A stretch of DNA of 64,000 nt from a virus, in IMG/VR virus record IMGVR_UViG_3300044712_000792, positions 20,697-84,696 of that record; one strand, written 5' to 3'. Made by a program: the position numbers and the translations under genes. Positions 17,897-59,764 of this stretch are shown in pieces; the stretch's first letter is position 1; every line of letters starts with the position of its first letter. The notes below the pieces were generated by a model, which worked only from the letters and a program-made list of their open reading frames with translations, was not told where the DNA came from and did not search any database.

Positions 17897-18349
17897 TTAT
17901 TCTCCATAATGTTTTGCCCCTAATGCCTTTAGTTTTTCAATAATATCTTTTACATTTCTACCTGATTTTTCCAATGTTTCTGCCATATCTAAAGGTGTTT
18001 TTTTATAACTTTTGTAACCCCGTGGAGAAAGCCAACTATAAGACACCAAAAAGTTTACATCAAGTTTTGTACTTTTAGCATATGCTAAAAATAGTCTTAC
18101 CATATTAAGTCTTTTATTAAATAAAGCAAGGGAAAATGGGGTATGTTGTCCTATTCTAGTATTAACATCAATCTTCAGTTCTTTAGCACAAGACAAAACA
18201 AGTTTAAGCATATCATATCTATAATACTCTACCATATAATATAAATTATCATAAGCATTTATATTAGCACCCTGTTCAAGAAGCTGAACAAATGTAAAAA
18301 AGTTATTATGTACTACAGAACTTCTTAATTCAAAATTAAGGTCAGCCAC
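17897..18349 (-). CDS. ankyrin-repeat protein (family member 1)
   Basis: LLEQGANIN, HTPFSLA, KTPLDMA, ends KLKALGAK. Confidence 0.85.
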   Translation of the reverse strand: MADLNFELRSSVVHNNFFTFVQLLEQGANINAYDNLYYMVEYYRYDMLKLVLSCAKELKIDVNTRIGQHTPFSLALFNKRLNMVRLFLAYAKSTKLDVNFLVSYSWLSPRGYKSYKKTPLDMAETLEKSGRNVKDIIEKLKALGAKHYGE

Positions 18350-19465
18350 TTAACTCTCCCTTACCGTTACAATACCTGTTCTAGTTTCTATTTCCAAATT
18401 AGGTAATGTTACGGTCAGTTTCCATCTATACTTCCTAGCTTTTAGATATGCATGATGTGTTATAGCATCAGTAGACTCAAATACATAGACATAATCTGGC
18501 TGCGTATCCGTGTATGTTAATGCGGGTTCTGTAGCTGGAGGTACTATTTCAACTATACCTATTAAACCACTAGTAATTGTATTACCAGTTGAAGTTATTC
18601 TGTATATTCTGTACTCTATAGCATCGCTAACCGCTGTCCAGGTCAAGGTAACATAATCATTATCTCCTAGAGGCGGAGCAGATGGGATTTGAACTTCTTG
18701 GGATATGATTAGTCGTCTAGCTGTAACAGCAACAACGATGTAAGTATATGTATATGCAGTAGATGTAGCCACTTTGGTTAATACAGCAGTAGGGGCTTCA
18801 AAGGCACATTTAGGTGTTGTTCCTCTAGTTACCCCTGTAAAATCTCCGTGATGTTTAATACAATAACAACCAGAGAACATTGTGTCATAAAAAAGTTCTA
18901 ATATCTGAAACTTTGAGGAACTAAAGATATAATCCTCAAATGTTATGGTTAAAATGAATGTGTCTTCCCAATAAAACGGCTTGAATTGCTTCCATGTAGT
19001 AATCAAATCTGTTGTCATTAAAAGAGTTACACCATTATTCAAATCTCCAATCCATTCAAATTCTGGTTCAATTTTAGCTGTCTTCTCTTGTAATCCGCAG
19101 GTTAAATACTTTCCCTTTAGATTAATCTTCTTCTTTTCTTCGGTAAGAACTAGTGTATTTTCTCTTGGGTTTGTTTGAACTTGTTTGTTAATTTTAGTGT
19201 TCTTGGCAGTTACCAATACGCTTACCCAAAATACTATCGGAACTGCCTCTAAATTAAGGTCAAATACAATGGAACTAGCCAATATGGTTAGGTCTTCTAT
19301 TTCAGCTTTACCAACAACTCTATCATTTACAAAGAATAGAACATCTACCGAATTGCTAGATACTTCTTGTTTTGCATATAGTTCTTCTAAAGTTGTAATA
19401 GTATCTTGTTCTACCGACCACTCTAATTTTAAGTCTTTATTGTTTATTGATTTTTCTACAATCAT
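18350..19465 (-). CDS. virion structural protein with FN3/Ig-like domain
   Basis: TYTYIVVAV...VTLTWTAVSDAIEYRIYR...YTDT. Confidence 0.6.
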   Translation of the reverse strand: MIVEKSINNKDLKLEWSVEQDTITTLEELYAKQEVSSNSVDVLFFVNDRVVGKAEIEDLTILASSIVFDLNLEAVPIVFWVSVLVTAKNTKINKQVQTNPRENTLVLTEEKKKINLKGKYLTCGLQEKTAKIEPEFEWIGDLNNGVTLLMTTDLITTWKQFKPFYWEDTFILTITFEDYIFSSSKFQILELFYDTMFSGCYCIKHHGDFTGVTRGTTPKCAFEAPTAVLTKVATSTAYTYTYIVVAVTARRLIISQEVQIPSAPPLGDNDYVTLTWTAVSDAIEYRIYRITSTGNTITSGLIGIVEIVPPATEPALTYTDTQPDYVYVFESTDAITHHAYLKARKYRWKLTVTLPNLEIETRTGIVTVRES

Positions 19466-19992
19466 TCAGTAACCTTATGTTTTTCCATAAATCGTATAAT
19501 TTTTTCTTTATCTGGCCCTTTAGCAAACCCAAAACTAGTCAGATTCCAATTACATGCTCTATAAGGGTCCGCCCCTAGTTTTATTAGAAATTCCACATTA
19601 TCAAAATCACCCATATCACAAGCACACATTAAAGGTGTGATGCCATTTTTATTACCATAATCAGCACTACAACCACCATCAATTAATTTTTGCAATAACA
19701 CCCTATCAGTAATTCTAGCCCACATAGCAAAATGTATTATAGTATTCCTATAATTTTTTGTTTTAGCCTTTAAATTTAGCTTTAGGTCTTTTGCATTATT
19801 AAGCATAAACCTAGCCATATCAATTCTATTTTCGTTGAGCATATGGGCTAACAAAGGAATTTCATCATCGCTATATCTATTAGTAACATAAGTGTTAGCA
19901 GAAACACCATTATCTAGTAATTCATATAATTGTCTTAAGCTATTTTTCTCAACAGCTTCCGTTAGTTTTTCTATTACATTTTCTATTGGCAT
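19462..19992 (-). CDS. ankyrin-repeat protein (member 2)
   Basis: LLDNGVSAN, NTIIHFA, GITPLMCAC.MG....VEFLIKLGADP. Confidence 0.9.
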   Translation of the reverse strand: MPIENVIEKLTEAVEKNSLRQLYELLDNGVSANTYVTNRYSDDEIPLLAHMLNENRIDMARFMLNNAKDLKLNLKAKTKNYRNTIIHFAMWARITDRVLLQKLIDGGCSADYGNKNGITPLMCACDMGDFDNVEFLIKLGADPYRACNWNLTSFGFAKGPDKEKIIRFMEKHKVTE

Positions 19993-19993
19993 T

Positions 19994-20398
19994 TTACATC
20001 ACATTATTGCTTGAGAAATTGAATAAGAACTGTTGGTCGGTTGAGGTTTCAGTATTCCTTACATTCATAACAATTATCATTTTTACATTGTAATCTTCTG
20101 TATCACCAACTGGACTGAATGTTATGTACAAAGAATCCACAGCTAAATATGACAGATATTTTTTCATTTGTAAGGTTATTATATTACGAATTTCTTGGAT
20201 TACTAGGTCTGTTGATGGGGCAAACAAGTAACTTCTTATGCCTATACCGAACTCTGGGTATCCTACTCTTTCACCTGGAACAGTCATAAGTAGCTGATAA
20301 ATATTGACATACATACCTTCAACAGAACTTCTATCTGTGCCTTGAAAATATCCATCGGTCATAGATTTTTTGAAAGGTATTAAAATGCTATTTGGCAC
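19994..20398 (-). CDS. baseplate wedge protein, GPW/gp25 family
   Basis: LLMT.PGERVGYPEFG.GI..YLF. Confidence 0.88.
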   Translation of the reverse strand: MPNSILIPFKKSMTDGYFQGTDRSSVEGMYVNIYQLLMTVPGERVGYPEFGIGIRSYLFAPSTDLVIQEIRNIITLQMKKYLSYLAVDSLYITFSPVGDTEDYNVKMIIVMNVRNTETSTDQQFLFNFSSNNVM

Positions 20399-20401
20399 TT
20401 A

Positions 20402-20626
20402 TCACTCCTTTTGTTTATATTCTTTACGGTCATTCAATATAGCAGAACCTTCATATTGTATCAATAATGTTATTTCAATAATCCCTGTTTTGTTGTCCCT
20501 TGTTGCTGAAATTGTTTTAACATCATTTACCGAACCCCACCTTCCTTGACAATTTTCCAAAATTTCGTTAATCTCTTCCGTTACATCGCTTTCGCTACCT
20601 TTGAATGTCTTGATTAAAACCTTCAT
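20402..20626 (-). CDS. hypothetical protein
   Basis: AAGGAG RBS; first gene of minus operon. Confidence 0.65.
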   Translation of the reverse strand: MKVLIKTFKGSESDVTEEINEILENCQGRWGSVNDVKTISATRDNKTGIIEITLLIQYEGSAILNDRKEYKQKE

Positions 20627-20674
20627 AAGTCTCCTTCACGAGTTTTGGTGTCAATTTCTTGAACCGGGCTTTAC

Positions 20675-20709
20675 TTTATATTCTTTTCCGAATTAGAATA
20701 GAATATAAG
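20675..20709. promoter_or_regulatory. divergent pair of class B (putative late) motifs
   Basis: AAAAGAATATAAA on minus (20675-20687) and ATAGAATATAAG on plus (20698-20709) between divergent operons. Confidence 0.65.
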
Positions 20710-20755
20710 ATAAATGGTTATTTACCTTGAAATATAAGAAAAAAAGGGGTCAATT

Positions 20756-23700
20756 ATGGTCAAATTAATAGAGGCAGACATTCCTGTTAGAATATTGCTT
20801 TCTGAAGCTAAATTGAGAGATGTATATGAACAATATAAGCTAACAGATGAAGAAAAACTGTATTTTAACCAAATCATTGAAAAACAAAGACATTTACAAA
20901 AATATATGCCACACATAATAAAATTCATCAAAGAGGATGGGTATGCCCCAAGTGTAGTCTTTGAGATATTCAATCTGTTTGAAAAATACAAAGATGTTGT
21001 CCCACATAAAGACTTTATGGATGCTAAATATTATTCTACGCTTTTAGACTTTAGACAAGCAATAAAAGTAGCACAAAGAGAGAAAAAAGCAGCTGTAATT
21101 GGTGGAGTAAACCCTAGTGTTGTTGAACGAATTGAGAATGGATTAAAACAGTTTTCAACAACAACATTTCTAGTTTCTGAAACAGACGAATATTGGGTTA
21201 TTTATATTGGGTCGTTTCCAGCTAGTGTTTATTTCTGTGAAGAACCTAGAAAACAGACATCAAAACTCGGTGGACCTCCTTGGTGTATTGGAGCCCAAGA
21301 AGGCAATTACAATAACTACCATCGTGATTACAAATCGTGTTTTTTGATTCAACCCAAAGATGGATATATGAAAAGCACCATTTTCTATGCTAGTGCTACC
21401 GCTCTTGAAAGAACAGATATTATGAACACAATGCATTATGATGAAGGTCCCTGGCATGGTGTCCTTAAGGTAATCAGAGAAAATGAAATGGTGAAAAAGA
21501 TTTGGGAGGTTAGAAGGGCGCAGCCTAGTCTTGCTATAAAAGATGTATCATTTTTTGTTATATCTGGTATTCCTGTTGGGACAGATTCTATGAAAACAAT
21601 TGAAACGCTAATAGAAAAAGAAGGAATAACTTTAACAAAAGATGAATGGGAGGAAATAAAGAAAAGTCCACAAACAGTTCTATCAAGAATATCATCTTGT
21701 CCTAGTAATAAAGGGTTTTTTTATTGGATAGCTTATGCTGGTATTTGGCCAGAGTATTATGACATTTATTGTAAGGGTAGTGCTAAATTGTATGATTCAA
21801 AACTACCATTCAAATTGAAAGTAGACTTGGTGAAAGCAGGGTCAAATTATGGAACACATTTAATGTATTCGTTTGGGACATTAATGAGCAAACTTGGTGA
21901 CATTAAAGTTGATGATTTTCTTGACGAAGCAACCGTTGCCACACTATTCAACGAGTACAAGAAAGACAATAATAACACTTTAGAACTATTGTCACAACTT
22001 AATTTTGATACAAAGGAAGAAAAACTTATTGATTTCATAAGATTCGCTGTTGCCCACCCAAAACTTCTTCGTTCCCCAGCTACAGCTAATAGTATATTTC
22101 ATGATGCTAATGCCCATCTTGCCCATTTTACAGCAAATTTAATGCTTCAAACACTACAACTGTTAGAAAAAAAGGTTAAAATATCCGATATACTAAAAAA
22201 ATTAGTTCCAGAAACAGATTATGAAACAAAAATTATAGCATATAATTCTATGGGTTTACCTGCTTGGGAGATGACACAAGAAAATTTAGTAAACGGTAGC
22301 ATAGAGGCTGTCGCAGAGATAGAAAAGAATCGTGCAACCCTAAAGAAAGGTTATAGTATAGAGTATTTGAAATTGTATGTGTTTACATATCCAGAGTTAC
22401 TCCCAATACTATTATCGGAACACAATTATGCTCAAACATTTAAGAATTTCTACAATATTACCGCAGAAACTAGAGATAAATTTGTTAAATTTTATGTTTC
22501 TATACCTCAATCTTATAGAGATTTGTTTGAGAAAATACTTACCGATATTGGGTACACTACTGATACGGCATTAGTAGAATCGTTTATGGAAGCTTATAAA
22601 GCAGATGCCTCATTTTTGGATGAAAAACAGATATACACAATCTTTAAACACGCTATTAACAACTATGGTAATGGTTATTTTTCTTGGATTAACGGCCCTT
22701 TACAACAGTTATTTACAGACCCAGCAGTTAAAAACCCTATGAGTAACGCTATAAATTTTTACCCTAGAATATTTAGACCTATTGAAGGAACAGCTAACTT
22801 CAAAAAAATAATACAACAATATAATAGATTTCAAGATGCTGTGCGTTATGCTTCAAGTCATGATGTTAGACCAAGTTCAAGAACTTGGGGTAATAATTTA
22901 ACTTTTGAAATGTTGCAAATGTATACAGACCAGCAACTTACAAATATGTATATGCTAACAAATTATCTTTCATTTAGCCCAGACAACGAAACTACTCAAG
23001 AAGTCATATATATGTTTTCTAATGAAGTAGTTGCTGCATTTGTAGCATCTAACCCAAAGATAAAAGATATTAATAAAGTAGGTCTAATATTTTTCAATTT
23101 AAAAAAACTATTGAAAACAGAAGAAAAAATGTTAGAATACTTAAAATCAAATGTGGTTAATGATGTTATAGCTGATTGTGATTCTCTTGAAGCTCTGGAA
23201 ACACTTGGTAAGTTTGGTGCGTTCCTTATAGCTGCAAATAAAGAAAAGTTTGAAAAATTCCTAGCCGAAACAAAAGAGTGGAGTTCTGGGCTTATAAAGT
23301 ATCTTTTAGCTTTTCAATATGGCACTTTAGATAATGGAGTAATAGATGCAATTTTAAGGCATAAATCGGTTTTTGAAGAAGCGTTCAAAACTAGTACTTT
23401 TAAGGATTTCCCAAATTCGTTAGTCCAACAAGCCTATAATATGTTTTCTTATAATGTTTATCATGGTGGTGGTCTGTCTAATGTTGAAACTATTAAGCTA
23501 TTCCTTTCTATGGATTTTAAGAATTTAATAGAACCATTAGACCTAGCAAAGCAAAACAATTTATGGAATTGGATGGCGTATGCTGTTGGTAGGACTTCTT
23601 CATATAGCAGTAGTATGCCTACTGTTGGTTCTCCTGCTGCGGTAACATCAATAACTAAATTACAAGAAATGGCATTCAAATTACCTAAACTAATAGCATT

Positions 23701-24949
23701 AGCAAAGCAATTAACCCGAATGGAAACATTAAAACGTCAAGATGGTGGGGTTAAAAGACTTTATACCAATATTGATTACATTTTAGCTTTTAGCGAAACC
23801 TTGGAGATAGGGAAAATCCTTTTTGATGGTGTATATGATACCCCTACTATAGATAAAAAATTTGCTAAAGTGGCGAGCCTTAACTTAAAACACCCCGGAT
23901 ATGCTATGTTACATATGCTACACGGAGTAATAAAGGCAGAAGTACTAAAAAGTTTAGATGAATATATGCCAGCGATTATGACAATACTTAAATGGGATTA
24001 TGCAAAACTACAAAATTTGTTGGGTAAAATAAACATATCTGATATAGCAGAAGCTTCACAGAACAATACACTAGAAGAACTCTTGTCAAACCAAGAATAC
24101 ATACACATAACCTTACCAAATTGCTTGTATGATTTACTCCAATTTGCGGAAGATGGCGATTATCATTACGGAATAGCTATAAATGCTATACCAGAGGTTG
24201 GTATTGCAACCTATTCAAACACAGAAGTATCGTTGGTGGCTTTACATAAAACTATTAAATCAAAATCTATTGTAGTAATTTTAAAAAATCATAGGTTTGT
24301 TTTACCTAATAGGAGTAAGGGTAGAAAATCTAGTGATGTTAATATTGTTATTGAAAAATTTAAGGCTAGTATTTCTGATGTAAAGTTTTTTGATAAGTTT
24401 AATGACGATAAGTATAGTGGTCGCATTGAATTAATCAAACATTTAGTTCCAGATAATAGTCAAGAAATAGATAAAGTAGTATCTCATATTTTATCTACTT
24501 GGGATAATTCAATGAAAGGACTTGGCAGGAAAATACAGGTATATGTTATGTTTTATGGGGATTCTAGTGGTATTACGGTTAATAAGTTATTGGTAGATTT
24601 TATAGAGGCGAATCTTAATGCAGGGTTTTTGGGTAGCCTTCTAAATGCATATAATTACTATATGCCAACCATTTCAAAAGAGAAAAAAACAAGGTTCTGG
24701 TATATAGCAGGGTTGGCTTGTGTGTTTGGTGTTAAAAACAATATTGATGTCGCAAAAATAAGTGGATGGACACCAGTCCTTTCACAATTAAAAATGGCTA
24801 GTTTGACATTTGATTTAAAGGATACAATTAAACAGATATTCAATTTGCGAGTTCCGTTACTAACTTCAATAGAGAAGTTAGAAATATCATCAAGTAACAA
24901 GCATGCATTAAAAACTCTTATGAATTTAGAAGGTATAGAACAATGGTAA
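20756..24949 (+). CDS. large helical protein, tandem paralog 1 (putative internal virion protein)
   Basis: 1397 aa; LLSEA leader, QKYM, HKDF, YIGSFPASVYF, PWCIG. Confidence 0.6.
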   Translation: MVKLIEADIPVRILLSEAKLRDVYEQYKLTDEEKLYFNQIIEKQRHLQKYMPHIIKFIKEDGYAPSVVFEIFNLFEKYKDVVPHKDFMDAKYYSTLLDFRQAIKVAQREKKAAVIGGVNPSVVERIENGLKQFSTTTFLVSETDEYWVIYIGSFPASVYFCEEPRKQTSKLGGPPWCIGAQEGNYNNYHRDYKSCFLIQPKDGYMKSTIFYASATALERTDIMNTMHYDEGPWHGVLKVIRENEMVKKIWEVRRAQPSLAIKDVSFFVISGIPVGTDSMKTIETLIEKEGITLTKDEWEEIKKSPQTVLSRISSCPSNKGFFYWIAYAGIWPEYYDIYCKGSAKLYDSKLPFKLKVDLVKAGSNYGTHLMYSFGTLMSKLGDIKVDDFLDEATVATLFNEYKKDNNNTLELLSQLNFDTKEEKLIDFIRFAVAHPKLLRSPATANSIFHDANAHLAHFTANLMLQTLQLLEKKVKISDILKKLVPETDYETKIIAYNSMGLPAWEMTQENLVNGSIEAVAEIEKNRATLKKGYSIEYLKLYVFTYPELLPILLSEHNYAQTFKNFYNITAETRDKFVKFYVSIPQSYRDLFEKILTDIGYTTDTALVESFMEAYKADASFLDEKQIYTIFKHAINNYGNGYFSWINGPLQQLFTDPAVKNPMSNAINFYPRIFRPIEGTANFKKIIQQYNRFQDAVRYASSHDVRPSSRTWGNNLTFEMLQMYTDQQLTNMYMLTNYLSFSPDNETTQEVIYMFSNEVVAAFVASNPKIKDINKVGLIFFNLKKLLKTEEKMLEYLKSNVVNDVIADCDSLEALETLGKFGAFLIAANKEKFEKFLAETKEWSSGLIKYLLAFQYGTLDNGVIDAILRHKSVFEEAFKTSTFKDFPNSLVQQAYNMFSYNVYHGGGLSNVETIKLFLSMDFKNLIEPLDLAKQNNLWNWMAYAVGRTSSYSSSMPTVGSPAAVTSITKLQEMAFKLPKLIALAKQLTRMETLKRQDGGVKRLYTNIDYILAFSETLEIGKILFDGVYDTPTIDKKFAKVASLNLKHPGYAMLHMLHGVIKAEVLKSLDEYMPAIMTILKWDYAKLQNLLGKINISDIAEASQNNTLEELLSNQEYIHITLPNCLYDLLQFAEDGDYHYGIAINAIPEVGIATYSNTEVSLVALHKTIKSKSIVVILKNHRFVLPNRSKGRKSSDVNIVIEKFKASISDVKFFDKFNDDKYSGRIELIKHLVPDNSQEIDKVVSHILSTWDNSMKGLGRKIQVYVMFYGDSSGITVNKLLVDFIEANLNAGFLGSLLNAYNYYMPTISKEKKTRFWYIAGLACVFGVKNNIDVAKISGWTPVLSQLKMASLTFDLKDTIKQIFNLRVPLLTSIEKLEISSSNKHALKTLMNLEGIEQW

Positions 24950-27900
24950 AAAAACTTATTACCGAAGCTAGATTAAGGGATGTTTATACCAAATACAACT
25001 TGACTGACGATGAAAAAACCTATTTTAATAAGGTCATTGAGAAGCAAAAATTTATGCAGAAGTATATGCCACAAATTGTCAAATTCGTCAAACAAGATGG
25101 GGAAGAAGCAGATTTTGTTCTTGATGTATTTAATACATTTGAAAACTACAAGGATAAGGTTGAACATAAGGACTTTTTAGACGAGAAGGCTTACCCAGAT
25201 TTGTATTCGTATAGGGCTGCTGTTAAAAACTTTATGACCACAAAACGAGTAGCATCAAATCCTATCAGAGAAAATGTTGAAAATGGGCTAAACCAATTCA
25301 GCACAACAACTTACCTTGTTAAAGAAACAGATAATTTTTGGCTTATTTATATAGGTTCTTTTCCAGCTAGTGTGTATTTCTGTACAGAACCAAGAAAAGT
25401 AACGGGTCGTCTAGGAGGCTCACCTTGGTGTATTGGTGCTAATGAAAGTAACTATAATGGTTATCACGATGGTGGCAATTTGTGCTTTATTGTAATGTTT
25501 AAAGATACATACGATAAAAGCACCATTTATTATGCAAATAGAAGTGGGTTTACTAGAACAGACATTATGAACCACGCATACAATACTGATGCTGGTACTA
25601 TTTGTGATGGTGTTTATCAGATTATAAAAGCAGACCCTATGGTAAATAAACTGTGGGATGCTAGAAATAAAGTGGGTAACTCAATACCAATAAGTTTTGT
25701 GTCTTCTTTTGTTTTAGCTGGAATGGAAGTATCTTCAGATAAGAATTTGTTATTAGATGCTGTTTTGAAGAAGCACAATATTCAACTTAATGGGGAAGAA
25801 TTAGACCTATTAAAAAGAAGGTTTAGTATCTCTGCTACAACTGTTTTGAATTATATGAGTGAAGCCCCTACTAAAGAAGATTATTGGCATTGGGTTAGAG
25901 TGTCAGCAACAATGCAAGGCCAGGGCCTACTAGTAAGTCGTAATTTGAGTAAGCTATTGTATAATTCAAAAGTTCCATTTTCAGTTAAGAAAAAAATAGC
26001 AAGAGCTCCAGATGGTGGTGCCCCTGATATGTGGTATAGATTTTCATATCTTATATACCCCTTAAATATAGATGACCTTGATTCTTTGTTCCCTGGTGAT
26101 TTGCTATCAGAGTTTATTGAGGCTACTACGCCAACTTTAATGAGAAATGAGATTTTTAATTGGTTTTATGCGAGTGCTGGACTTGAATTTTCAGAGTACA
26201 AAAAAGAAGAACTTATTGGATTACTTGAATTTATTAAAACAAATCCTTCCTTCGTTTCTGCAATTCTTGGTAGTATCAGTAAATTTAGCAAATTTACTGT
26301 TGGGTTATTGCTACAAGCGTTTAATCTTTTATTGAAAAAAGAAGCAAATGTTGATACTATGTTAGATAAGCTAGTTCCTTCTACAGAATATGAAACTAAA
26401 ATATTAGAGATATTGAAGATAGGTTCGTTAAGCACTTGGAAACTAACAAAAGAACAAGTAATGGCCGCCGATTTGGAAGTATTAAAACAAGTAAATGAAA
26501 AAGCAAATATAGATATAATTGTACAATATGGACTATCTCAATCTGCAATTAGATATCTTACACTTAAATACCCTAAAATTATAACAATACTAAAAGAAGC
26601 ACATAAATTTCTTTACAACACAGGTTTTATTGGTGGACAGGGGGAAGAAGAATTTATCACAGGATTATTAAAATTCCCACCAGAACAAATACGGGAGTTT
26701 AACAAAGCATTTGAATCAACAGGCTATTCTATGGATAATGGAATTGCTTATTGTTTGGGTTGTTTATTCAAATCTGATATAAGCTTTTTATCCCCAGAGT
26801 TACAAATTAGTTGTGTGCGCTGGACAATAAATAGCTATGGTAATGAATATTTTTCTTTCAGTAGAGGCTTGTTAAGGAATGTGCCATTTTTTCCAAAACA
26901 GAAAGAGGTTACACTACTCCCTAACATATTTGACCAACCTATTATGATGTTCAAACCAGCAGAAGGAACTGCCAATTTTAAAAAGATTCTAGCCAACTAT
27001 GAGAAATTTCTTAATGCAATTTTTTATGTTCAATCTAGTGGTTTGACATTAAACTATCAGACAGAATTTTTTAGGTCTATGTCATATGAAACCCTCTCAA
27101 TGTATTCAGAATACCAATTAACAAATCTATTTTTGTTATCACCTTATCTATCAAATCAACAAGAAAATGATGAGACCAAAGATGTAGCTTTAAAATACTC
27201 TAGAAGATTAATACTAGCATTCTTGAAAAGCCTACCACGAATCTCAAATATAAACCATGTTGGACCTTTACTTAACAAATTAAAGGGTTTGTTGGGCACA
27301 GAAGAAAAAATGATTGAGTTTATGAGTAGCCATTCTATTAGCACTAATATGATTCACTTGAAAACTATAGAGCAAATGGAAAAACTATCTAGATATGGTA
27401 TGTTTAATTTAACAGCTAGTTATGAGAATATGGAAGCCTTTTTTTCAGAAACAGAAGATATATATGTTGAAGTGGCTAGATATATGAAATTGTCAGGCAT
27501 TTCAGAACTAAACAATTCGGTTATTACAGAAGCATTAAAAACTATTGGATTGTTCAGAACTGAAGTTAAAAAAAGCAACTTTTTGAAGCTATCTCCGATA
27601 AACTTTAATGCCGTAAACGCTTTTTGGTTAAATATGGTGTATAAAACAAATTCTAATTATATTTGGCTAACTGAACATATTAGCTTATTTTTCAGTATGG
27701 ATTTTGAACGCCTAGACCGTATGGCACCAGAATTTGTTAAACCAAACGCTTTTGCTGGTTGGCTACAAAGTTTCTATAATGGTGGGAATCTTTGGAATGC
27801 TGGGGACGAGAAGGCAAAATCTGCAATAGAAAATGCCTTAAATTATTTAGAATCCGTAATGCCAATCAGAGAGATGTTTAAAAAGTTGGGTGTGACAAAT

Positions 27901-36632: not shown

Positions 36633-36653
36633 TATTTATCCTTTCAAATTATA

Positions 36654-41632: not shown

Positions 41633-41635
41633 CTA

Positions 41636-42703
41636 TTATTTCCTTGCTTTAAGTATTATATTACGTTGCCTTACTGATGCATGTTCTTTTCCGTATTTTG
41701 TGAGTTTAGCCCCATTGTTTATTAAAATGTCAATAAGGTTATCATAACCCTGATATATTACCCAATCCAACAATGTCTTACCTTCATATTTTGTATTTAC
41801 ATCGCCACCGTTTTTCAGCATTATTGAAAGTGCCCAACTATTTGTGTTTGTTATAACTAACTTTGTTAATAGTGGTTGACTACCAACCTTCATATTAGGT
41901 ATGTCTACCCCATTGGTTTTAGCGGTTTTAACAATATTTTCAATAATAATAACAGGTAAATAATGCACAAGAAGATAATAAAATTCCATTGGAAATTTTG
42001 CCGCTAAAAATGCGTATACTTGTTCTGGCACTTCTTCCAAATTATCCACACCATCAACATAGTTATTTCTATCAAAGAATAAAACACTTTCATCGCTAGA
42101 TATGTTAATAAAATACATAGTATAAAGGTCTTTTTTGTTTTGACATAGAATCAAATGTTCGTCTTGGTCTTGAACATATTCATAAAACCAATTTCTATCA
42201 ACATCAGGAATACCAATACAAAAAGCACTAACCTTTTTATCACTAGACTTTTTAGCATATTCCCTTTGTGGTTGCCCAAAAAAGATAGCAGCTTCAGGCT
42301 TAAACAGGTCTATAAAGTAATAATCTTTTGTTTCAAATAACAACTTTGCTTCAGATGGAAATTTCTTAAGTCCAATACCCACAAAATCAGCAGGACTTTT
42401 AAATTTGTTAAGCTGTTCAAGAATTTTTTGTTCTGCTGTCTTGAAATCAGAATACATTTTGTTGCTTATATCTTTAACTAAAAGCTTTGGGTTGTTCTTG
42501 TTTTGTTCCAATACTTTTATGAAATCAGTTATATTGTCCATTTCAATCTTTTGCGTTTTATGCCATTCAGCAATCCTAGCAAAATATTTATGCTGAATAC
42601 CAGTTGGGTCCAGGTCCTCATATAAACTAATTTCTCTAGGAGTTAGGTTAAACTTCTTAATAGCATTTTTTACAATTGCGGATTCTACTATGTATTGTTT
42701 CAT
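41636..42703 (-). CDS. 'WC-module' protein fused to C-terminal ankyrin repeats
   Basis: IVES leader, DPT..KY, KDI, AAIFFG..FCIG..WF.EY; C-terminal MLKNGGDVNTKYEGKTLLDW...LINNGAK. Confidence 0.72.
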   Translation of the reverse strand: MKQYIVESAIVKNAIKKFNLTPREISLYEDLDPTGIQHKYFARIAEWHKTQKIEMDNITDFIKVLEQNKNNPKLLVKDISNKMYSDFKTAEQKILEQLNKFKSPADFVGIGLKKFPSEAKLLFETKDYYFIDLFKPEAAIFFGQPQREYAKKSSDKKVSAFCIGIPDVDRNWFYEYVQDQDEHLILCQNKKDLYTMYFINISSDESVLFFDRNNYVDGVDNLEEVPEQVYAFLAAKFPMEFYYLLVHYLPVIIIENIVKTAKTNGVDIPNMKVGSQPLLTKLVITNTNSWALSIMLKNGGDVNTKYEGKTLLDWVIYQGYDNLIDILINNGAKLTKYGKEHASVRQRNIILKARK

Positions 42704-43248
42704 TCGTCTACCCCTGCGTATTTATCTAACAAATTTCTAATTGGGAAGTAATTAATGTGATTTTTCAGCTCGTCCAAAGAATTATAATCCTCTTCTTCCA
42801 CAACAGCACCATTTTCAAGTAATAATCTAACCATCTCTACATTCATATTCCAAATAGCGAAAGTTAAAGGCCCTGAACCACTCCTATTTTTTACATTAAC
42901 ATTACAACCTAAATTGAACATCATTTTTGCTATCTTAAAAATAAGATTCTCGTCATCTTTGTTGACCCCTCGTTTCCCAACCAACATACTTATAGATGTT
43001 GCACCATCAAGAGATTTCTTGTTTACATTTAGCTTAAGCTCTTTGGCATTACGCAATAACAACATAACTATATCATAATACTGATGTTTTATACAAGTTG
43101 TAAGCAATGTGTTACCCCAATCATTCGGAAGTGAAAAATTTACATCTCCGCCATTTTCTATATAAGTAATTACATCCACTAAACAAGGAAGCCCCTGTAA
43201 TATGTTTTTTTGTATTTTGTCTTGTAAAGCCTTATGTTCTTCTGTCAT
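42700..43248 (-). CDS. ankyrin-repeat protein (member 5)
   Basis: ENGGDVN, GNTLL, GCNVNVKNRSGSGPLTFAI...MVRLLLENGA. Confidence 0.9.
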   Translation of the reverse strand: MTEEHKALQDKIQKNILQGLPCLVDVITYIENGGDVNFSLPNDWGNTLLTTCIKHQYYDIVMLLLRNAKELKLNVNKKSLDGATSISMLVGKRGVNKDDENLIFKIAKMMFNLGCNVNVKNRSGSGPLTFAIWNMNVEMVRLLLENGAVVEEEDYNSLDELKNHINYFPIRNLLDKYAGVDE

Positions 43249-43661
43249 TCCGTTGGCCTATAATATTTTATTACCAAGCTTGAAATCCTTTGTGGGAGAT
43301 AACTATTAGCATAATCAGCATCTTGTTGTCTTACAATCGCACCAGCTTCCAACAATAATGAGAGAACAGCTAGTCCATCTGGGTTTTCAGTCCTACCAGC
43401 CAATAACATTTCCAATGGTGTACATTGACCAACAGATTCTTTGTTTACATCTAACTTCAATTCTTCCTTATGCTTTAATAAAAAAAATATGAGCTTATAT
43501 ACTTGGTATTTTATCGTGCTAGTCAATATAGTATTTCTAAAATCATATTCGTTTTGAGCATTAACATCACCACCAAGTTCAAGATAGGTGATTAACTTTA
43601 GAAAAGCACTTGGACTTTTCTCCATTATTGCGTCAAATAATTCAACTTCTGTTTTCTTCAT
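43245..43661 (-). CDS. ankyrin-repeat protein (member 6)
   Basis: Start at TAATG overlap with the gp6-like stop; ELGGDVN, KLDVN, CTPLE, LLEAGA. Confidence 0.82.
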   Translation of the reverse strand: MKKTEVELFDAIMEKSPSAFLKLITYLELGGDVNAQNEYDFRNTILTSTIKYQVYKLIFFLLKHKEELKLDVNKESVGQCTPLEMLLAGRTENPDGLAVLSLLLEAGAIVRQQDADYANSYLPQRISSLVIKYYRPTE

Positions 43662-46333
43662 TAAGAGTTCTCCGTAGTAGTTATAAGAAGAATGAGAATA
43701 TTTGGACAAACATAAATGGGGCTTGCTTCGGATACTAAATACGCTCTAGGGGATGTTGTAGAACCAGAAGAATAAATGTTCCTTGTAATACCATAAAGCA
43801 CATTACTTATCTTCTTTTGGTAAGCAATAAATTCATTCTCTATTCTGATAATACCTTGTTCTGGAAGCAGGCTTAAATCAGAGTTATATTGGTCGTCTAG
43901 TGTAATAGACTCTACTTCATTGTTAGCAGCTATATCAGTCTTTAAGTAGTATGTCATAGTTTGGTCTGTTGAAAGAACTTGGTTAAGAGGTGCTATTGCT
44001 GCTTTGTAAGGAAGCAATCCAATGATGTGTGTATCTGGAACACCTGTAATGTCTTCTTCAACAGAGATTGGGATATAGTTTGAAAGACTTGGGTTGGTTG
44101 AATTAATAATGTATTGTGTTGCATGTTCATATAGGATAGACTTAACTTCTTGATGTCCTTGTATTGCCGAAATTAAAGGGGAAATTTCCATGTCCTTACC
44201 AAGACCCCAACGAGTATTTGTAAGGTTAAAGTAATCTTCAATTGAAAGTCTAATTTTATCCATCAATAAGTTGTAGTTGGAATAGCTTGAAACTTTTATT
44301 TTCAATAGCATATACACAGGGAGAATATCACCTTCAAGGATAAGAGTTTCGTTTACTCCTACTTTATACTTATCAATAGCTCTGTAAAGGTCAGGTCTAA
44401 CACCTCCAAGGTTTATAATTGAATCTTCCAAGTGAGATGAGATTTGCGTATTCTGATACCCTCTGCTTATAATGTTCAAATATTTATAAGCATCATAACT
44501 AGTTTCATAAGTAATGTTACCACTAGAGTCTGTAGTTTTCTTATAATAAGGAGTTGAAGCTACTTGCAGTAACTCGTTATCCATCTGCACTATAGCAAAA
44601 TTATCTGTTCCCCCAGGCCACTCTAATGTTCCCAATTTACCAACATCTAAACCTTCATAATTAAAGGTTTCGGGGGCGTCAGAAGATAGTTGTAGCATAT
44701 AGTTAGGGTCGTTCATAACATAACAGCCTACAACATCTCCAGAAGAAAAGATATTAGTAACATCTTCTGGTATAGTAATATCCAAATATTCATCATTAAC
44801 AGGAGTTAAGACCATATCAAATTCCTTACTAACCCCTTTGGCACTAATCATTGACACATAATCCAAAGGAGTTTCGTTTGAAGTTCCATTTTTCTTTAAC
44901 TCATTTCTGTTAGCAACGTAGAAATCGTTTGTTTCATTAACCCTTGCTAAAGGATAAAGCAATCTTATTGAAGTTGTTTCAGTAGAACTGTTGTAATTTA
45001 TGGCCTGTATAATGTTATAATCTAACGAATTCCTTAATTTTGTGTTTTCAGTTCCACGAATAGGTCTTAAATAACCTTCTTCAGTTGATTGATAATTAAC
45101 TATAAGGAGTTTTATTAGATTTCCAGTGGCATCATTATCTACTAAATAGGCTTTGGCTTTCGCTATACCGCTGAAATTACTAGCAAAATAAGCAAAGTCC
45201 TCACCAGAAACTAATCTGTTTTGAGACCTTATCTTGAATGGGTGGTAGTATTTAGCCTTTTCTAGAGTGTCTCCTTCAGAACCGCCAAATGTCTGGATAA
45301 AGTTTTCTAATAAAGCGTTAGTTCTAAAAGAACCGTTCCTATAGGCAGGGACAGCTATCTTCAGAGACCCCTTACGAATGCTCTTGTGGGCTCCGCCACC
45401 TACCCTATAAACGACTTTAATAGCCGAACCCATAGGAGGTATCACCCCAAACGCAGAATTGCCGAATTTGATGGTCATTTTGAAACTGCCATCCCATTCC
45501 AACTCAAAGTGTTTATCGGTAGTTGTACTATATATTAGTGAATCAACCTCTTTCCAGTCTGTTTCAAGCAAGCCAGTCTGACTATTCTGGACTGTTATAC
45601 CTACCCTAAACCCAGAAAGTGGGTCTTGGCACACAGGAAACGAAGAAAGTTGGAATTTTTGGTTAGGTTTGCCGTTAGAATAGAAGGTTTCTGGTACACT
45701 TCTGCCTTCTACTATAGCAAATTTGCTTACAGGAGCATCAACAGAGGTACTCATATCAGAATTTAAAGAATTTGCAGGTATTACAACGAAATTTGTGGGG
45801 TTATCTGACAATAATGCGGTATAATTCAGAGTGTAATCGGTATTAACCTCAAATATTTCATAACTTATCTTATCTTGACCAGAAGAGAAGGTAAATTTAG
45901 TTCCAGGTGCTATTGTTATTGCAGAAGTATCGTTTTCTGTCCTACTAAACCTTAAATTGATGAAATTGTTGTTACTATCTGTTTGATATAAGAAAGAACA
46001 AGAAGGTAAAGATATCTTTATACCTGTTAATAGTGCCATTTTGGTATAAACATCAAGAGAACTGACAGAATCAAGGTAAAACTGTTTCGTTGTGTAATCT
46101 ACTTTATACCCAAACATAGCTGTGGCATAAGCTACTATTTCCATTAGCATCATACCTGAACTTGATTCAGCAAAGTCAGTCCAATCAGGGTAGTTTATCC
46201 TTATATAGTCCAGTAAGATAGCTCTTAATTCTTCAAAGGTATAATTTAATGCGTAATTAGGCAAGGTTCTTAAATAGATTAAAAATCCTCTGCTTAATTC
46301 ACTTGATGGGGGTAGGCAAGATACTGTTGACAT
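43661..46333 (-). CDS. baseplate wedge protein (T4 gp6/baseplate J-like)
   Basis: FEELR..L..YI...YP.WTDF.ESS.G, SNG.PNQ.F.L, FGN..FG.IP..G..I.V.YRVGGG, QNRLVS.EDF. Confidence 0.9.
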   Translation of the reverse strand: MSTVSCLPPSSELSRGFLIYLRTLPNYALNYTFEELRAILLDYIRINYPDWTDFAESSSGMMLMEIVAYATAMFGYKVDYTTKQFYLDSVSSLDVYTKMALLTGIKISLPSCSFLYQTDSNNNFINLRFSRTENDTSAITIAPGTKFTFSSGQDKISYEIFEVNTDYTLNYTALLSDNPTNFVVIPANSLNSDMSTSVDAPVSKFAIVEGRSVPETFYSNGKPNQKFQLSSFPVCQDPLSGFRVGITVQNSQTGLLETDWKEVDSLIYSTTTDKHFELEWDGSFKMTIKFGNSAFGVIPPMGSAIKVVYRVGGGAHKSIRKGSLKIAVPAYRNGSFRTNALLENFIQTFGGSEGDTLEKAKYYHPFKIRSQNRLVSGEDFAYFASNFSGIAKAKAYLVDNDATGNLIKLLIVNYQSTEEGYLRPIRGTENTKLRNSLDYNIIQAINYNSSTETTSIRLLYPLARVNETNDFYVANRNELKKNGTSNETPLDYVSMISAKGVSKEFDMVLTPVNDEYLDITIPEDVTNIFSSGDVVGCYVMNDPNYMLQLSSDAPETFNYEGLDVGKLGTLEWPGGTDNFAIVQMDNELLQVASTPYYKKTTDSSGNITYETSYDAYKYLNIISRGYQNTQISSHLEDSIINLGGVRPDLYRAIDKYKVGVNETLILEGDILPVYMLLKIKVSSYSNYNLLMDKIRLSIEDYFNLTNTRWGLGKDMEISPLISAIQGHQEVKSILYEHATQYIINSTNPSLSNYIPISVEEDITGVPDTHIIGLLPYKAAIAPLNQVLSTDQTMTYYLKTDIAANNEVESITLDDQYNSDLSLLPEQGIIRIENEFIAYQKKISNVLYGITRNIYSSGSTTSPRAYLVSEASPIYVCPNILILLITTTENS

Positions 46334-46335
46334 TG

Positions 46336-46881
46336 TTACTCCTTATATAATATTCGGTAGCCACTAGATGTTAATTTTGCATTATAATAATCTTTCCACA
46401 TATCCGTATTCATTAGGTCTTTAACACGCTTTTCTCCAGCAAGCTTAAAGAACAAATCACGTCTTTTTAAGGCTTCTCTACTATTTAAAGCTATAAATAT
46501 ATTGGTTAATTCCCTCAAATAAGTATCTATGTGGTTATCTATATCAGCCTTAACCAAATCTGGATACATATTGCAGATTCGTTCGGCTAGAGTGCTCGTG
46601 GATATAAACAACAGAAATCTAAAAGCATTAGAAGTAGCACAACGAACTTTAAATGTATCAAAAAGCCCTGTATCAATTTCTGTAAGATGTTCAAGAATAA
46701 AACGAGTAACTACTGATGGTGAGTCAAGGTCTGGGTCGCCATTTATACCACCTAATCTCATCATAAAATTACTACAATCACCATTATAGGCGGATAGCTT
46801 TTTCCCAGACTCTAGATAAGTGATTAAATAGTATAAGCTATCTCTTCTAATTACTTCGTCTAATGCTTCTCTATCAGTCAT
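46336..46881 (-). CDS. degenerate ankyrin-like family protein (member 7)
   Basis: N-terminus L..VI.R.SL...ITYLESG resembles the family start; sister of next gene. Confidence 0.5.
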   Translation of the reverse strand: MTDREALDEVIRRDSLYYLITYLESGKKLSAYNGDCSNFMMRLGGINGDPDLDSPSVVTRFILEHLTEIDTGLFDTFKVRCATSNAFRFLLFISTSTLAERICNMYPDLVKADIDNHIDTYLRELTNIFIALNSREALKRRDLFFKLAGEKRVKDLMNTDMWKDYYNAKLTSSGYRILYKE

Positions 46882-47440
46882 TTTTTATACCCATTAATAT
46901 TTTAGTCCATTTCTCATATGTGTCTGGTAACATCTTATCTTTAAATAACTCAAAAAAACTTACTAATTTTTCGTTTCGTGTCCTTAATAAGTGTTGTGGT
47001 ATTAAAGAGAAAAGCAAATTCACTCTCACATCTGTATTGTTATCAGGGTCAAGACCCGCATGATTATTTAAATAGTGACACTCATAACCAAAATAAGAAG
47101 TGAAATCAGTTTCTATATTTTGTGCCACAACGCTTTTATATTGACTCGCAATAAGTTTAGCACAGCTAGCCTTCTTACACAAAAACAAAAAGTATCTAAA
47201 TGTTGACGATGTGTTGCAAGTAAAACCAGAAAATTTACCAAACAAATCAATACCCAATTCAGTAGCATATCGTATAGAAAAATGAGCCAAATTATCAGCA
47301 CTATTAACATATGCCATTATTGGAAAATTTGAGCATTGGTCGTCAACTACATTTAGTTTTTTCCCGGACTCTAGATAAGCTATGAACTTAACTAGACTTT
47401 TCCGTTCTATGATTTTGAGTAATTCTTCTCTATCCGCCAT
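46874..47440 (-). CDS. degenerate ankyrin-like family protein (member 8)
   Basis: TGATG overlap with peptidase; REELL.II.R.SL..FIAYLESGKKL...CSNF, YATELGID. Confidence 0.5.
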   Translation of the reverse strand: MADREELLKIIERKSLVKFIAYLESGKKLNVVDDQCSNFPIMAYVNSADNLAHFSIRYATELGIDLFGKFSGFTCNTSSTFRYFLFLCKKASCAKLIASQYKSVVAQNIETDFTSYFGYECHYLNNHAGLDPDNNTDVRVNLLFSLIPQHLLRTRNEKLVSFFELFKDKMLPDTYEKWTKILMGIKND

Positions 47441-48363
47441 CAGCCCAATCCCATAATAACCCAAGGACTAAAAGTATAATCTTGGTAGAATTGAAACGGC
47501 ATAAAGTAGTAACCACCTTTACCCCATGCGTTTCCCCAACTATTACGAACCTTAAAGTATTGAGTGTCTAAATCATATCCTACCAATACTGTGCAATGTC
47601 CTCCTTGGTTCTTTTCATCTGAACTAGGCATTTCCAATATACCATCATTAAGTATCTTTGTGCTTGTAATTGAATTAAAACAATATTGCCCAAATATAAC
47701 TGGAACTCCTTTATCTAACATAGAACAAGCCTGGGCTACATCATTTTCATTTAGCTTTAAGTACTTATTAATCTTGAAGTTAGCACCATCAGCATAGGCT
47801 TCTTTAGTTGGTTGTGTTTTCCATAATTTCAATTCATAAGGCCAAATTGATTCTACGCATACTCCATATTTTTGACAAGCCTTTAAAGCATCTCTTACAT
47901 ACATACCGCTATCTTCATTGACAGTTCCCATAATCAATCTACCATTGTAATATACATACAATCTACTTCTATCAATAAAAGTATTATCAGTCTTTTCATA
48001 TAGTTCAATAGCACCTACTATTGATTGTGCTACGCAAGAACCCAACTCACCTTGGTTCTCTATCATTGAAAATTTAGGTGTTAAATCTACTTGCCTCTTA
48101 ATAACAGTAGTAGGCTCAAGCATAACTTGGTCAGCATACAAATCCCTTGAGTCAATAGGGTCTGGGTGGCAAGCAAATACCCATTTAGCATCTGGGTTGG
48201 TTAAAAGTAAATATAGAAAGGCTGCTTCTTGTGCTAACCTTTCTTCTCCAGGAAATATTTGTTCTAAAGGTATCTTGTTCTCAATAGCAATCGTGACGAA
48301 CTTCTTAATAGTATCCACTTCTTCTTGGGTGAAGCCATAATGATTTTCAGGGCCATAAGGCAT
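47440..48363 (-). CDS. papain-like cysteine peptidase (C1A)
   Basis: NQGELGSC (Q, C), SRLY.YYN.R, GGHC..LVGYD (H), VRNSWG..WG..GY (N). Confidence 0.92.
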   Translation of the reverse strand: MPYGPENHYGFTQEEVDTIKKFVTIAIENKIPLEQIFPGEERLAQEAAFLYLLLTNPDAKWVFACHPDPIDSRDLYADQVMLEPTTVIKRQVDLTPKFSMIENQGELGSCVAQSIVGAIELYEKTDNTFIDRSRLYVYYNGRLIMGTVNEDSGMYVRDALKACQKYGVCVESIWPYELKLWKTQPTKEAYADGANFKINKYLKLNENDVAQACSMLDKGVPVIFGQYCFNSITSTKILNDGILEMPSSDEKNQGGHCTVLVGYDLDTQYFKVRNSWGNAWGKGGYYFMPFQFYQDYTFSPWVIMGLG

Positions 48364-48378
48364 TTCAACCTCCTTTAG

Positions 48379-49395: not shown

Positions 49396-49396
49396 C

Positions 49397-58507: not shown

Positions 58508-58518
58508 AAGGGGTTTAT

Positions 58519-59079
58519 ATGTCATCTGAATACAATGAGATGCTATTTGAAGGAATTTATGAAAACAATATGTATAAGTTCATTATGGCACTAGAGAACG
58601 GTGCTGATGTAAATGCTTTTTCTACTAAAATAGAACTTCGTTTTGGGGCGCGAGTAGCACCTCTATACATTGCATGTCATATGGATAAAATGACAATGAT
58701 TAAAATATTAATAGAGAATTGTGAAAAATTGAAATTGGATATAGGTGCTACACAAGACGCTTTACTTGGTTCTGGGTTTAATGTTCTTATGTCTATGTGT
58801 TGCTCTGGTTCAAATAAACTCCCAATTGTAAAAATGTTAGTTGAAAACAGAAAACATCTTAAATTGAAGCTAGACGCTATATATGAAGATGGAAGAACAG
58901 CTTTAATATTTGCTATATGTAATAGTGTAGGAATAGCAGAATGGCTTTTAGAGAATTACCCTGATGAATTGGACATCAATAAGAAATCTAAACACGGTTC
59001 TACGGCACTAAAAGAAGCAAAGGCGCGTGAGTTGAAGAAGTGTGTAAAGCTATTAAAGGCGTTGGGTGCGAAAGAATAA
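58519..59079 (+). CDS. ankyrin-repeat protein (member 13)
   Basis: LENGADVN, APLYIAC, NCEKLKLD, GRTALIFA, GSTAL..A, LLKALGAKE. Confidence 0.92.
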   Translation: MSSEYNEMLFEGIYENNMYKFIMALENGADVNAFSTKIELRFGARVAPLYIACHMDKMTMIKILIENCEKLKLDIGATQDALLGSGFNVLMSMCCSGSNKLPIVKMLVENRKHLKLKLDAIYEDGRTALIFAICNSVGIAEWLLENYPDELDINKKSKHGSTALKEAKARELKKCVKLLKALGAKE

Positions 59080-59092
59080 GATATTTGAAACT

Positions 59093-59105
59093 AAAAGAAT
59101 ATAAA
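59093..59105 (+). promoter_or_regulatory. class B motif AAAAGAATATAAA
   Basis: Exact intergenic copy upstream of ankyrin member 14 and the fibre genes. Confidence 0.68.
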
Positions 59106-59152
59106 CACAAGAGTTTCTATACCTTGAATTTCACTAATATCTAGGATAACTA

Positions 59153-59764
59153 ATGGAAAATGTAACATTAGATTTAAGAATAAAATTCATAAACGCTGTG
59201 AGGGCGAATAATACTCCTAGATTTATTGAGGCTATTGAGTTGGGTCTTGGTGCTAATATAAATAATCCATTAGGTGTTGCTGGATATTTTGATGATACAC
59301 CTTTATTAGTAACTGTTAAACAAAAAAGATATAATCTGACAAAAATATTGTTAGATAACTATGACTCATTAAAATTAGATGTGAATGTTTTATGTGAAAG
59401 ACAAAAGAATAGTATGGGTAGTGGCTGGAACGGGCTTACACCATTCTTATATTGTTGTGGTAGTATAGGAGACATTAATGAACAGACTGTTTTGTTGTTT
59501 TTATCTAAACATAAGGAGTTAAATCTTGATTTGACAACACAAAGTCATTTTGGTAACACCGCCCTTATGTATTTGCTATATAATCACCCAACTATTGTTC
59601 CAGGTATTTTAGAAAAATACGGTCATTTGGATTGGGGTGTCTTTTTAGAAGATTGTGAACACGATGATATAGTAAAATTTGCCAGAAAGTTTTACAAATA
59701 CGACCTAGGTGTAATAGACACACTAATAGAAATGCAAATGAGAACGAATGCGAGGAATAAATGA
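59153..59764 (+). CDS. ankyrin-repeat protein (member 14)
   Basis: LGANIN, DTPLL, NYDSLKLDVN, GLTPF, GNTALMY. Confidence 0.88.
   Translation: MENVTLDLRIKFINAVRANNTPRFIEAIELGLGANINNPLGVAGYFDDTPLLVTVKQKRYNLTKILLDNYDSLKLDVNVLCERQKNSMGSGWNGLTPFLYCCGSIGDINEQTVLLFLSKHKELNLDLTTQSHFGNTALMYLLYNHPTIVPGILEKYGHLDWGVFLEDCEHDDIVKFARKFYKYDLGVIDTLIEMQMRTNARNK

Follow-up and report, generated by a model that had tools for sequence, protein, structure and literature searches.

Why a phage should thread a family of small ankyrin-repeat (ANK) genes between the individual genes of its tail and baseplate operons is the question raised by IMG/VR virus record IMGVR_UViG_3300044712_000792, a linear sequence of 84,696 bases whose right-hand 64 kb (bases 20697-84696) constitute the stretch of DNA analysed here, hereafter the window. 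The source is an uncultured, myovirus-like rhizosphere phage with a GC content of ~33-34%. Thirteen stand-alone ANK genes and one fusion, fourteen ANK-related genes in all, lie at eight sites in the late 47 kb, inside tail and baseplate units (Table 1, in which genes are named by their first window coordinate). The analysis establishes them as a selected family of small cytoplasmic scaffolds for protein binding, encoded in late operons and possibly directed at the phage's own virion proteins.

Eleven of the small genes are clear members of one ankyrin family, and 46336 and 46874 are divergent members. The gathering score of the Pfam Ank_2 model is passed by six of the fourteen (17897, 19462, 42700, 53975, 58519 and 59153) and approached from below by four (37118, 43245, 56480 and the C-terminus of fusion 41636); 36654, 55976, 46336 and 46874 have no match to the Pfam ANK models and are tied in through paralogs or the family profile. 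A hidden Markov model (HMM) of the family, built on ten seed members and run over the 275 open reading frames (ORFs) of the whole record, added four genes, namely 55976 (E 3.8e-9), 46874 (5.7e-8), the fusion 41636 (3.9e-6) and 46336 (1.9e-3), with no further matches among these ORFs, and a six-frame Ank_2 scan of the record was in agreement. Genes 36654 and 55976 resemble the ANK genes next to them at 35-36% identity (E 5e-17 and 3e-19, respectively); the HMM score of 36654 is not independent because this gene is itself a seed, which 55976 is not. The divergent pair has only its N-terminal ~65 residues in common with the family (hhalign probability 90%). An AlphaFold2 (AF2) model of 46874, computed from a two-sequence alignment, is all-helical and weak, with a predicted local distance difference test score (pLDDT) of 52, and the ESM-Atlas feature neighbours of this protein, taken as a lead only, are mostly ANK clusters, with other alpha-solenoids also present. 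A further candidate, the ORF at 57974-58507 (+) encoding 177 amino acids (aa), was rejected, with an hhalign probability of 0.9%, a family HMM E value of 0.11 and no Pfam ANK match. An earlier sequence-only reading of the window had counted about 14 stand-alone genes plus one fusion; the fusion and 13 of the stand-alone genes are borne out, and without 57974-58507 the tally becomes 13 + 1.

The family alignment reveals a private motif, an extended repeat end of the form N(A/K)..LKL(D/N)V. As a regular expression it matches nine members; the 26 closest ANK proteins from outside the family and all remaining ORFs in the 85 kb lack it. This portion of the signature proposed in the sequence-only reading is indeed private, whereas its other two portions, L..AI..N....FI..LE.G.DVN and a terminal L..LGA, are ordinary ANK consensus. 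For the representative 58519, an AF2 model based on the paralog alignment (pLDDT 78, predicted TM-score 0.74) comprises paired helices in about four repeats, and a Foldseek search with this model returned 317 PDB matches at E<=1e-3, the best being DARPins with a probability of 1.0 and a TM-score by target of 0.8. The fold check suggested beforehand, run on this member, thus points to an ANK fold, and 58519 is predicted to form an ankyrin solenoid like that of designed ankyrin proteins.

Apart from the repeats the proteins hold little else. No signal peptide or membrane segment was found in any member: the N-termini are charged or helical and lack a hydrophobic h-region, and a crude Kyte-Doolittle scan in 19-residue windows gave no clear membrane-like window. 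By Pfam, no second domain (nuclease, transposase, mobility or enzyme) accompanies the ANK domain in the stand-alone members, whose 138-203 aa are filled by repeats. Homing-endonuclease-like mobility was accordingly dropped, as the searches returned ANK domains and no nuclease domain. We also considered, and dropped, a capsid-targeting leader of the T4 L/I-x-E type; the N-terminal L-x-E/D belongs to the first ANK helix (L..AI), so it is common by descent and not a leader. The ANK alignment offers no stretch conserved enough for use as a scan query.

To place the family among other ankyrins, its profile was compared with 5.8 billion clusters, where its own members scored 128-165 bits and the best outsider, a generic ANK match, 76 bits; a search with a single member recovered only that member. 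A tree that included the 26 closest small ANKs from outside the family places 12 of the 14 members on one side, and the family label needs 2 changes as against 11.7 in shuffles. Constraining all 14 to monophyly gave a likelihood better than that of the free search by 16 units, and by the approximately unbiased (AU) test a single clade is compatible with the data (p 0.85), in line with the monophyly against database ankyrins that the sequence-only reading had expected. A single origin is therefore probable, with the caveats that ANK alignments are noisy, that the outgroup is limited to outsiders reached by the word index, and that in BLAST 19462 and the fusion score slightly better against outsiders. 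A profile search of 1.84 billion proteins found 160,165 ANK proteins, headed by giant multi-repeat proteins; at the level of sequence it confirms the ANK identity but cannot resolve close kin. With tblastn, 58519 had no match at E 1e-3 in 50,697 deposited phage genomes, and megablast of the sequence against the same genomes also gave none. The ANK genes are a lineage-specific paralog family.

The relationships within the family indicate how it grew. Adjacent genes are reciprocal best matches in four cases (36654/37118, 42700/43245, 46336/46874 and 55976/56480) and nearly so in a fifth (58519/59153), suggesting dispersal to eight sites followed by tandem duplication at four or five of them. Paralogs are 25-47% identical, and the GC content at third codon positions (GC3) is 0.249 in the ANK genes and 0.256 in their neighbours, which together show that the family is old in the lineage; recent horizontal import was dropped on the grounds of the matching GC3. 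By our own arithmetic, a random 150-codon frame at 33% GC stays open with a probability of ~1e-5, and that frames of 140-200 codons are open despite such divergence indicates that the genes are kept by selection.

The placement of the family is as distinctive as its sequence. No ANK member occurs in the early 37.5 kb (~70 genes), which comprise window positions 1-16.8 kb, where the sequence-only reading had already seen none, and the 20.7 kb 5' of the window. Taking the sites as independent, we calculate that all eight would fall in the late 47 kb by chance with a probability of 0.557^8, or ~0.009. There the ANK genes occupy 7,725 bases (16%) and number 14 of ~40 late genes, about a third. Their junctions with neighbours mostly measure -4 to +3 bases, a tight packing that makes translational coupling likely for most of them.

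The same genes share a candidate start signal with the virion genes around them. An 11-mer, AAGAATATAAA, occurs in six exact copies, against ~0.3 expected by composition, and its wider form, A[AT]AGAATATAA, in ten copies in the 85-kb record; all copies are on the coding strand, about 15 to slightly more than 200 nucleotides (nt) upstream of a gene start. Both divergent intergenic regions hold one copy per orientation, and the motif, as AAGAATATAAA or a one-base variant, is found at the starts of all four or five ANK-bearing late units. It resembles the T4 late promoter core, TATAAATA. No terminator-like site was found on the coding (minus) strand within the 20-kb baseplate unit, and scans for sigma-70 promoters and intrinsic terminators gave matches at or below chance. 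The shared start motif, the tight junctions and the lack of a terminator-like site make co-transcription with virion genes likely, and from operon position only we infer late expression of the ANK genes.

Table 1. ANK-related genes, promoter-like motifs and neighbouring genes, in window coordinates.
Feature	Position	Strand	Evidence	Context
ANK, 150 aa	17897..18349	-	Ank_2 31.1 bits, over cut-off; best paralog 37118 (29% identity, E 2e-14)	Adjoins FN3-labelled 371-aa gene and gp15-like gene, 0-base junction on each side
ANK, 176 aa	19462..19992	-	Ank_2 44.9 bits; also Ank, Ank_3, Ank_5, Ank_4; motif NAKDLKLNL	Between gp25 and 371-aa protein genes; ATGA overlap downstream
ANK, 155 aa	36654..37121	-	35% identity to 37118 over 147 aa, E 5e-17; motif NADTLKTNL	Precedes gp5-like spike gene directly in transcription; sister of 37118
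ANK, 158 aa	37118..37594	-	Ank_2 21.4 bits, sub-threshold; reciprocal best match with 36654	Directly downstream of 1345-aa gpI-position gene, 0-base junction
WC-ANK fusion, 355 aa	41636..42703	-	Ank_2 E 1.4e-3 at residues 257-335; hhalign to family 79%	WC head module at about residues 1-240, then 2-3 ANK repeats at about 257-335
ANK, 182 aa	42700..43248	-	Ank_2 39.8 bits; 47% identity to sister 43245 over 73 aa, E 4e-19	
ANK, 154 aa from TTG	43245..43709	-	Ank_2 17.2 bits, sub-threshold; motif HKEELKLDV	Sister of 42700; alternative start, ATG at 43661 abutting gp6 stop, gives 138 aa
Divergent ANK-like, 181 aa	46336..46881	-	35% identity to sister 46874, E 6e-18; pair hhalign 90%	Directly upstream of gp6-like gene
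Divergent ANK-like, 196 aa (188 aa from ATG 47440)	46874..47464	-	Family HMM E 5.7e-8; hhalign	Directly downstream of papain-like peptidase gene
ANK, 141 aa	53975..54400	+	Ank_2 38.0 bits; motif NAEKLKLDV	After 151-aa membrane protein gene (ATGA overlap), before 509-aa protein gene
ANK, 166 aa	55976..56476	+	Family HMM E 3.8e-9; 36% identity to sister 56480, E 3e-19	
ANK, 158 aa	56480..56956	+	Ank_2 24.9 bits, sub-threshold; motif NKDKLKVDL	
ANK, 186 aa	58519..59079	+	Ank_2 79.1 bits	Most canonical member, ~4 repeats
ANK, 203 aa	59153..59764	+	Ank_2 27.7 bits	ATGA overlap with 965-aa fibre-like gene; own promoter-like motif AAGAATATAAA at 59095-59105
Promoter-like motif AAGAATATAAA	20414..20424	-	Exact copy	15 nt upstream of gp25 start, then ribosome-binding site AAGGAG; heads unit gp25-ANK-371aa-ANK-gp15
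Promoter-like motif	53438..53448	-	Exact copy	Divergent intergenic region; heads 20-kb baseplate unit
Promoter-like motif	53472..53482	+	Exact copy	Heads unit 53523 to 59079
Promoter-like motif, all copies	3928, 13581, 20414, 20675, 20698, 53438, 53472, 59095; two more 5' of the window			
20-kb baseplate unit	53371 to 33274	-		Holds 9 ANK-related genes
T4 gp15-type tail sheath stabiliser, 356 aa	16826..17896	-	Pfam T4-gp15_tss 33.9 bits, over cut-off; phrog_227	
gp25-type baseplate wedge, 134 aa	19994..20398	-	phrog_43 E 3e-9; Pfam GPW_gp25 E 6e-6	
gp5/V-type OB-domain spike, 317 aa	35679..36632	-	Pfam Phage_base_V E 1.8e-7	
gp6-type baseplate wedge, 890 aa	43661..46333	-	phrog_219 E 4e-20	ANK pair on each side
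Papain-family cysteine peptidase	47440-48363	-	Pfam Peptidase_C1 E 1.3e-15	Inside baseplate operon
PAAR protein	51400-51648	-	Pfam	Inside baseplate operon
WC-module genes, three giants	20756-33284	+		
WC-module gene, 327 aa	52388-53371	-		
WC-module gene, fusion	41636-42703	-		

With the gp6-type wedge gene serving as anchor, the relatives that could be reached were L001 and L002, two IMG/VR contigs (42.6 kb) from a single phage. Its proteins are 39% (gp6; L002 9977-12619), 44% (gp5; L002 7419-8507), 32% (gpI-position protein), 31% (371-aa protein), 27% (hub) and 28% (gp25) identical to those encoded here. The comparison suggested in the sequence-only reading shows the same six genes contiguous and ANK-free in L002, in the order hub, gp5, a 348-aa gene, gp25, gp6, the gpI-position gene and the FN3-labelled gene. 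Here, by comparison, one unit runs gp6, ANK, ANK, WC-ANK, gpI, ANK, ANK, gp5, hub and a separate one gp25, ANK, 371-aa gene, ANK, gp15-like gene, the units being separated by an insertion of three 1400-aa paralogs on the opposite strand. ANK genes occupy five of the six junctions flanking the six baseplate genes that the two phages have in common. The best deposited match of the gp6-like wedge, at 26% identity, lies in a 595-kb uncultured phage. Scans of metagenome and genome contigs found no further relative, nor did viral-contig scans with gp5, the gp6 relatives P0153, borne on a 405-kb contig, and P0154, and two ANK members.

The baseplate module as a whole (33274-46333 and 16826-20398) is strongly rearranged relative to L002 4755-17181: hub and gp5 have swapped places, the genes for gp25 and the 371-aa protein sit in a separate unit, and the 348-aa gene of the relative has no homologue here. 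In L002 the module ends with a gene (20581-22614) whose product carries RCC1-like 'WAWG.N..G.LG' repeats, of which there are none in the window; it is presumably a fibre or receptor-binding protein.

We propose, with somewhat less than even confidence, that the targets of the ANK proteins are virion proteins of the phage itself, which they would serve as chaperones or adaptors or join as accessory parts. The repeat surface of each member, or of each sister pair, would bind one virion protein made from the same messenger, and the bound ANK protein would then assist assembly as a dedicated chaperone or holdase, serve as an adaptor or form an accessory part of the baseplate or fibre, without being exported. 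Dispersal between single structural genes with coupled junctions fits products that meet the products of their neighbours, and the WC-ANK fusion, which ties ANK repeats to a domain heading four other late proteins, counts in the same direction. A narrower form of this proposal, 'one ankyrin per client', is conceivable, although we hold it with some doubt: each ANK protein or sister pair would serve the adjacent virion protein, either by acting as chaperone or holdase while baseplate and fibre are assembled or by riding on the baseplate as a detachable cargo or adaptor, with the WC-ANK fusion as a tethered version of the same principle. Several points weigh against virion binding. No ANK gene occurs in the 42.6 kb of L001 and L002 or in the 595-kb phage with the distant gp6, and a baseplate built without them in the relatives makes the family an addition in this lineage, dispensable for the conserved core. 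The proteins have no match to known phage assembly-chaperone families (Pfam among others), and in other viruses an expansion of ANK genes is generally taken as a sign of host interaction. The restriction to the structural region may fail genome-wide, since the record is 41% complete by CheckV, a fragment of a phage of roughly 200 kb of which ~59% is unseen (the 84.7-kb record includes no capsid, portal, terminase or sheath gene), and insertion at gene boundaries could reflect merely where insertions are tolerated.

A serious rival, which we hold somewhat less probable than virion binding, is that the proteins are host-directed binders of bacterial proteins (defence systems, proteases, envelope or regulatory factors) that act late or ride the particle into the next infection, the late operon providing only strong expression. 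Small ANK paralogs with diverged surfaces are the usual sign of host interaction in giant viruses and poxviruses, the family is accessory and absent from the only relatives reachable, and the wide range of isoelectric points, from 4.7 to 9.3, fits varied targets; nonetheless, this reading gives no account of eight dispersed sites with 0-4-base junctions between baseplate genes. Host-directed binders have no obvious need for a dispersal that fills five of six junctions, and known anti-defence genes are mostly early or packaged by recognisable routes, no such route having been found here. It is improbable that the genes are largely functionless passengers, an expanding family tolerated at harmless gene boundaries and promoting baseplate rearrangement. 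They do lie at synteny breakpoints relative to L002, and the relatives manage without them, but all 14 frames are intact at the divergence noted above, their codon composition is fully adapted to the genome, no flanking repeats were seen, and 140-200 aa leave no room for the nuclease, transposase or mobility domain that is lacking. Still less probable are effectors aimed at a eukaryote harbouring the bacterial host, as the ankyrins of phage WO and the ANKp of Ankyphages are, an idea raised in the sequence-only reading. Such effectors typically carry ANK repeats, the sample comes from rhizosphere, a habitat with protists and roots, and four rhizosphere phage contigs with ANKs are included in Jahn et al. 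(bioRxiv 10.1101/608950). The absence of any signal peptide or membrane segment argues against secreted effectors of the Ankyphage type and so weakens the idea; moreover, the genes are inside baseplate operons and not in a terminal module like the eukaryotic association module (EAM) of WO (PMC9203015), and within the 85 kb we noticed neither an integrase nor a lysogeny gene, although these were not searched for systematically.

Family assignments of the neighbouring genes uphold these labels of the sequence-only reading: gp25, gp5, gp6, the peptidase and a 'tail terminator', which is the gp15-type tail sheath stabiliser; 'FN3 protein', 'gpI', 'holin' and 'adaptors' are without family support. 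Homologues of the 371-aa and 1345-aa proteins are encoded in the corresponding module of the related phage, and the ~1400-aa giants and most structural proteins have no match in Pfam or PHROGs. The divergent pair 46336/46874 comes next after the peptidase gene and could encode an inhibitor of that enzyme. The WC module spans ~240 residues with the motifs QKY and WCIG and is N-terminal in the three tandem ~1400-aa paralogs, in the 327-aa protein and in the WC-ANK fusion; it has no Pfam, PHROG or PDB-sequence match. In the ESM-Atlas, as a lead only, we found viral clusters with a structurally similar head followed by ANK, WG-beta or DUF4116 repeats, and the 'head plus repeat' design may be recurrent in other phages. 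Two adjacent small late genes, 56953-57450 and 57393-57995 (+), are paralogous to one another (24% identity across 174 aa, E 7e-11) and have no family match.

The sequence of the record is present whole in contigs of one rhizosphere metagenome run, and low-coverage pieces from a second rhizosphere study are identical to it, with zero differences.

How does this arrangement compare with known systems? Literature searches yielded no description of ANK genes interleaved between baseplate genes, and the novelty claimed for their dispersal in the sequence-only reading is upheld to that extent. The closest models for virion binding are eukaryotic ANK assembly chaperones, Yar1 for Rps3 and Nas6/gankyrin for the proteasome subunit Rpt3, which are small stand-alone ANK proteins serving one subunit each and absent from the finished machine; the analogy is functional only, with no homology beyond the repeat type and a different domain of life. 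Phages likewise encode tail-fibre and baseplate assembly factors, such as T4 gp38, gp57A and gp51 and Tfa, from small non-core genes beside the gene served in late operons, although these have no sequence or fold relationship to the ANK members and are single genes, not a 14-member family. Large families of short ANK proteins in one genome, presumably sets of protein binders as here, are found in giant viruses and poxviruses, usually in tandem arrays or in terminal or accessory regions and often in very similar copies, whereas here eight dispersed sites in essential late operons hold members of 25-47% identity with tight structural-gene junctions.

Phage ankyrins themselves are not rare, contrary to the premise of the sequence-only reading: Jahn et al. 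2019 counted 418 IMG/VR phage contigs with ANKs, rhizosphere being the source of a few (bioRxiv 10.1101/608950). The Ankyphage ANKp is likewise a small phage-encoded ankyrin-repeat protein (bioRxiv 10.1101/608950), but there is one per phage as against 14 genes here, two of the three ANKp proteins begin with a signal peptide and are presumed to be secreted, unlike the members between these baseplate genes, and the best outsider score of 76 bits indicates no close sequence relationship. Phage WO resembles the present phage in having several ANK genes in one tailed phage, one of them conserved between the tail module and a putative lysis cassette (Bordenstein & Bordenstein 2016, 2022; PMC5062602, PMC9203015). 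WO ankyrins are mostly found in the terminal EAM of a temperate phage with an obligate intracellular host, and some have a C-terminal membrane segment that members here lack; here the genes are interleaved between single baseplate genes, inside baseplate and tail operons as opposed to a terminal accessory module, and the 85 kb give no sign of lysogeny or an EAM. The new element is the placement inside baseplate operons, not the ANK family itself.

Viral ankyrin families are usually read as host-manipulation tools in accessory regions. Here the ANK genes are joined base-to-base with single structural genes, and a relative builds the same core without them. The case also shows that an expanding family can settle at gene boundaries within 'conserved' structural modules and rearrange the module as a side effect. 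If host binding is the true function, late structural operons can house a large counter-host repertoire. If virion binding is, the family would add a new class to the phage assembly factors or baseplate accessories and offer a natural repertoire of small, evolvable binders whose targets are known, and, should each member or pair serve one client, a phage counterpart of the ANK chaperones in eukaryotic ribosome and proteasome assembly.

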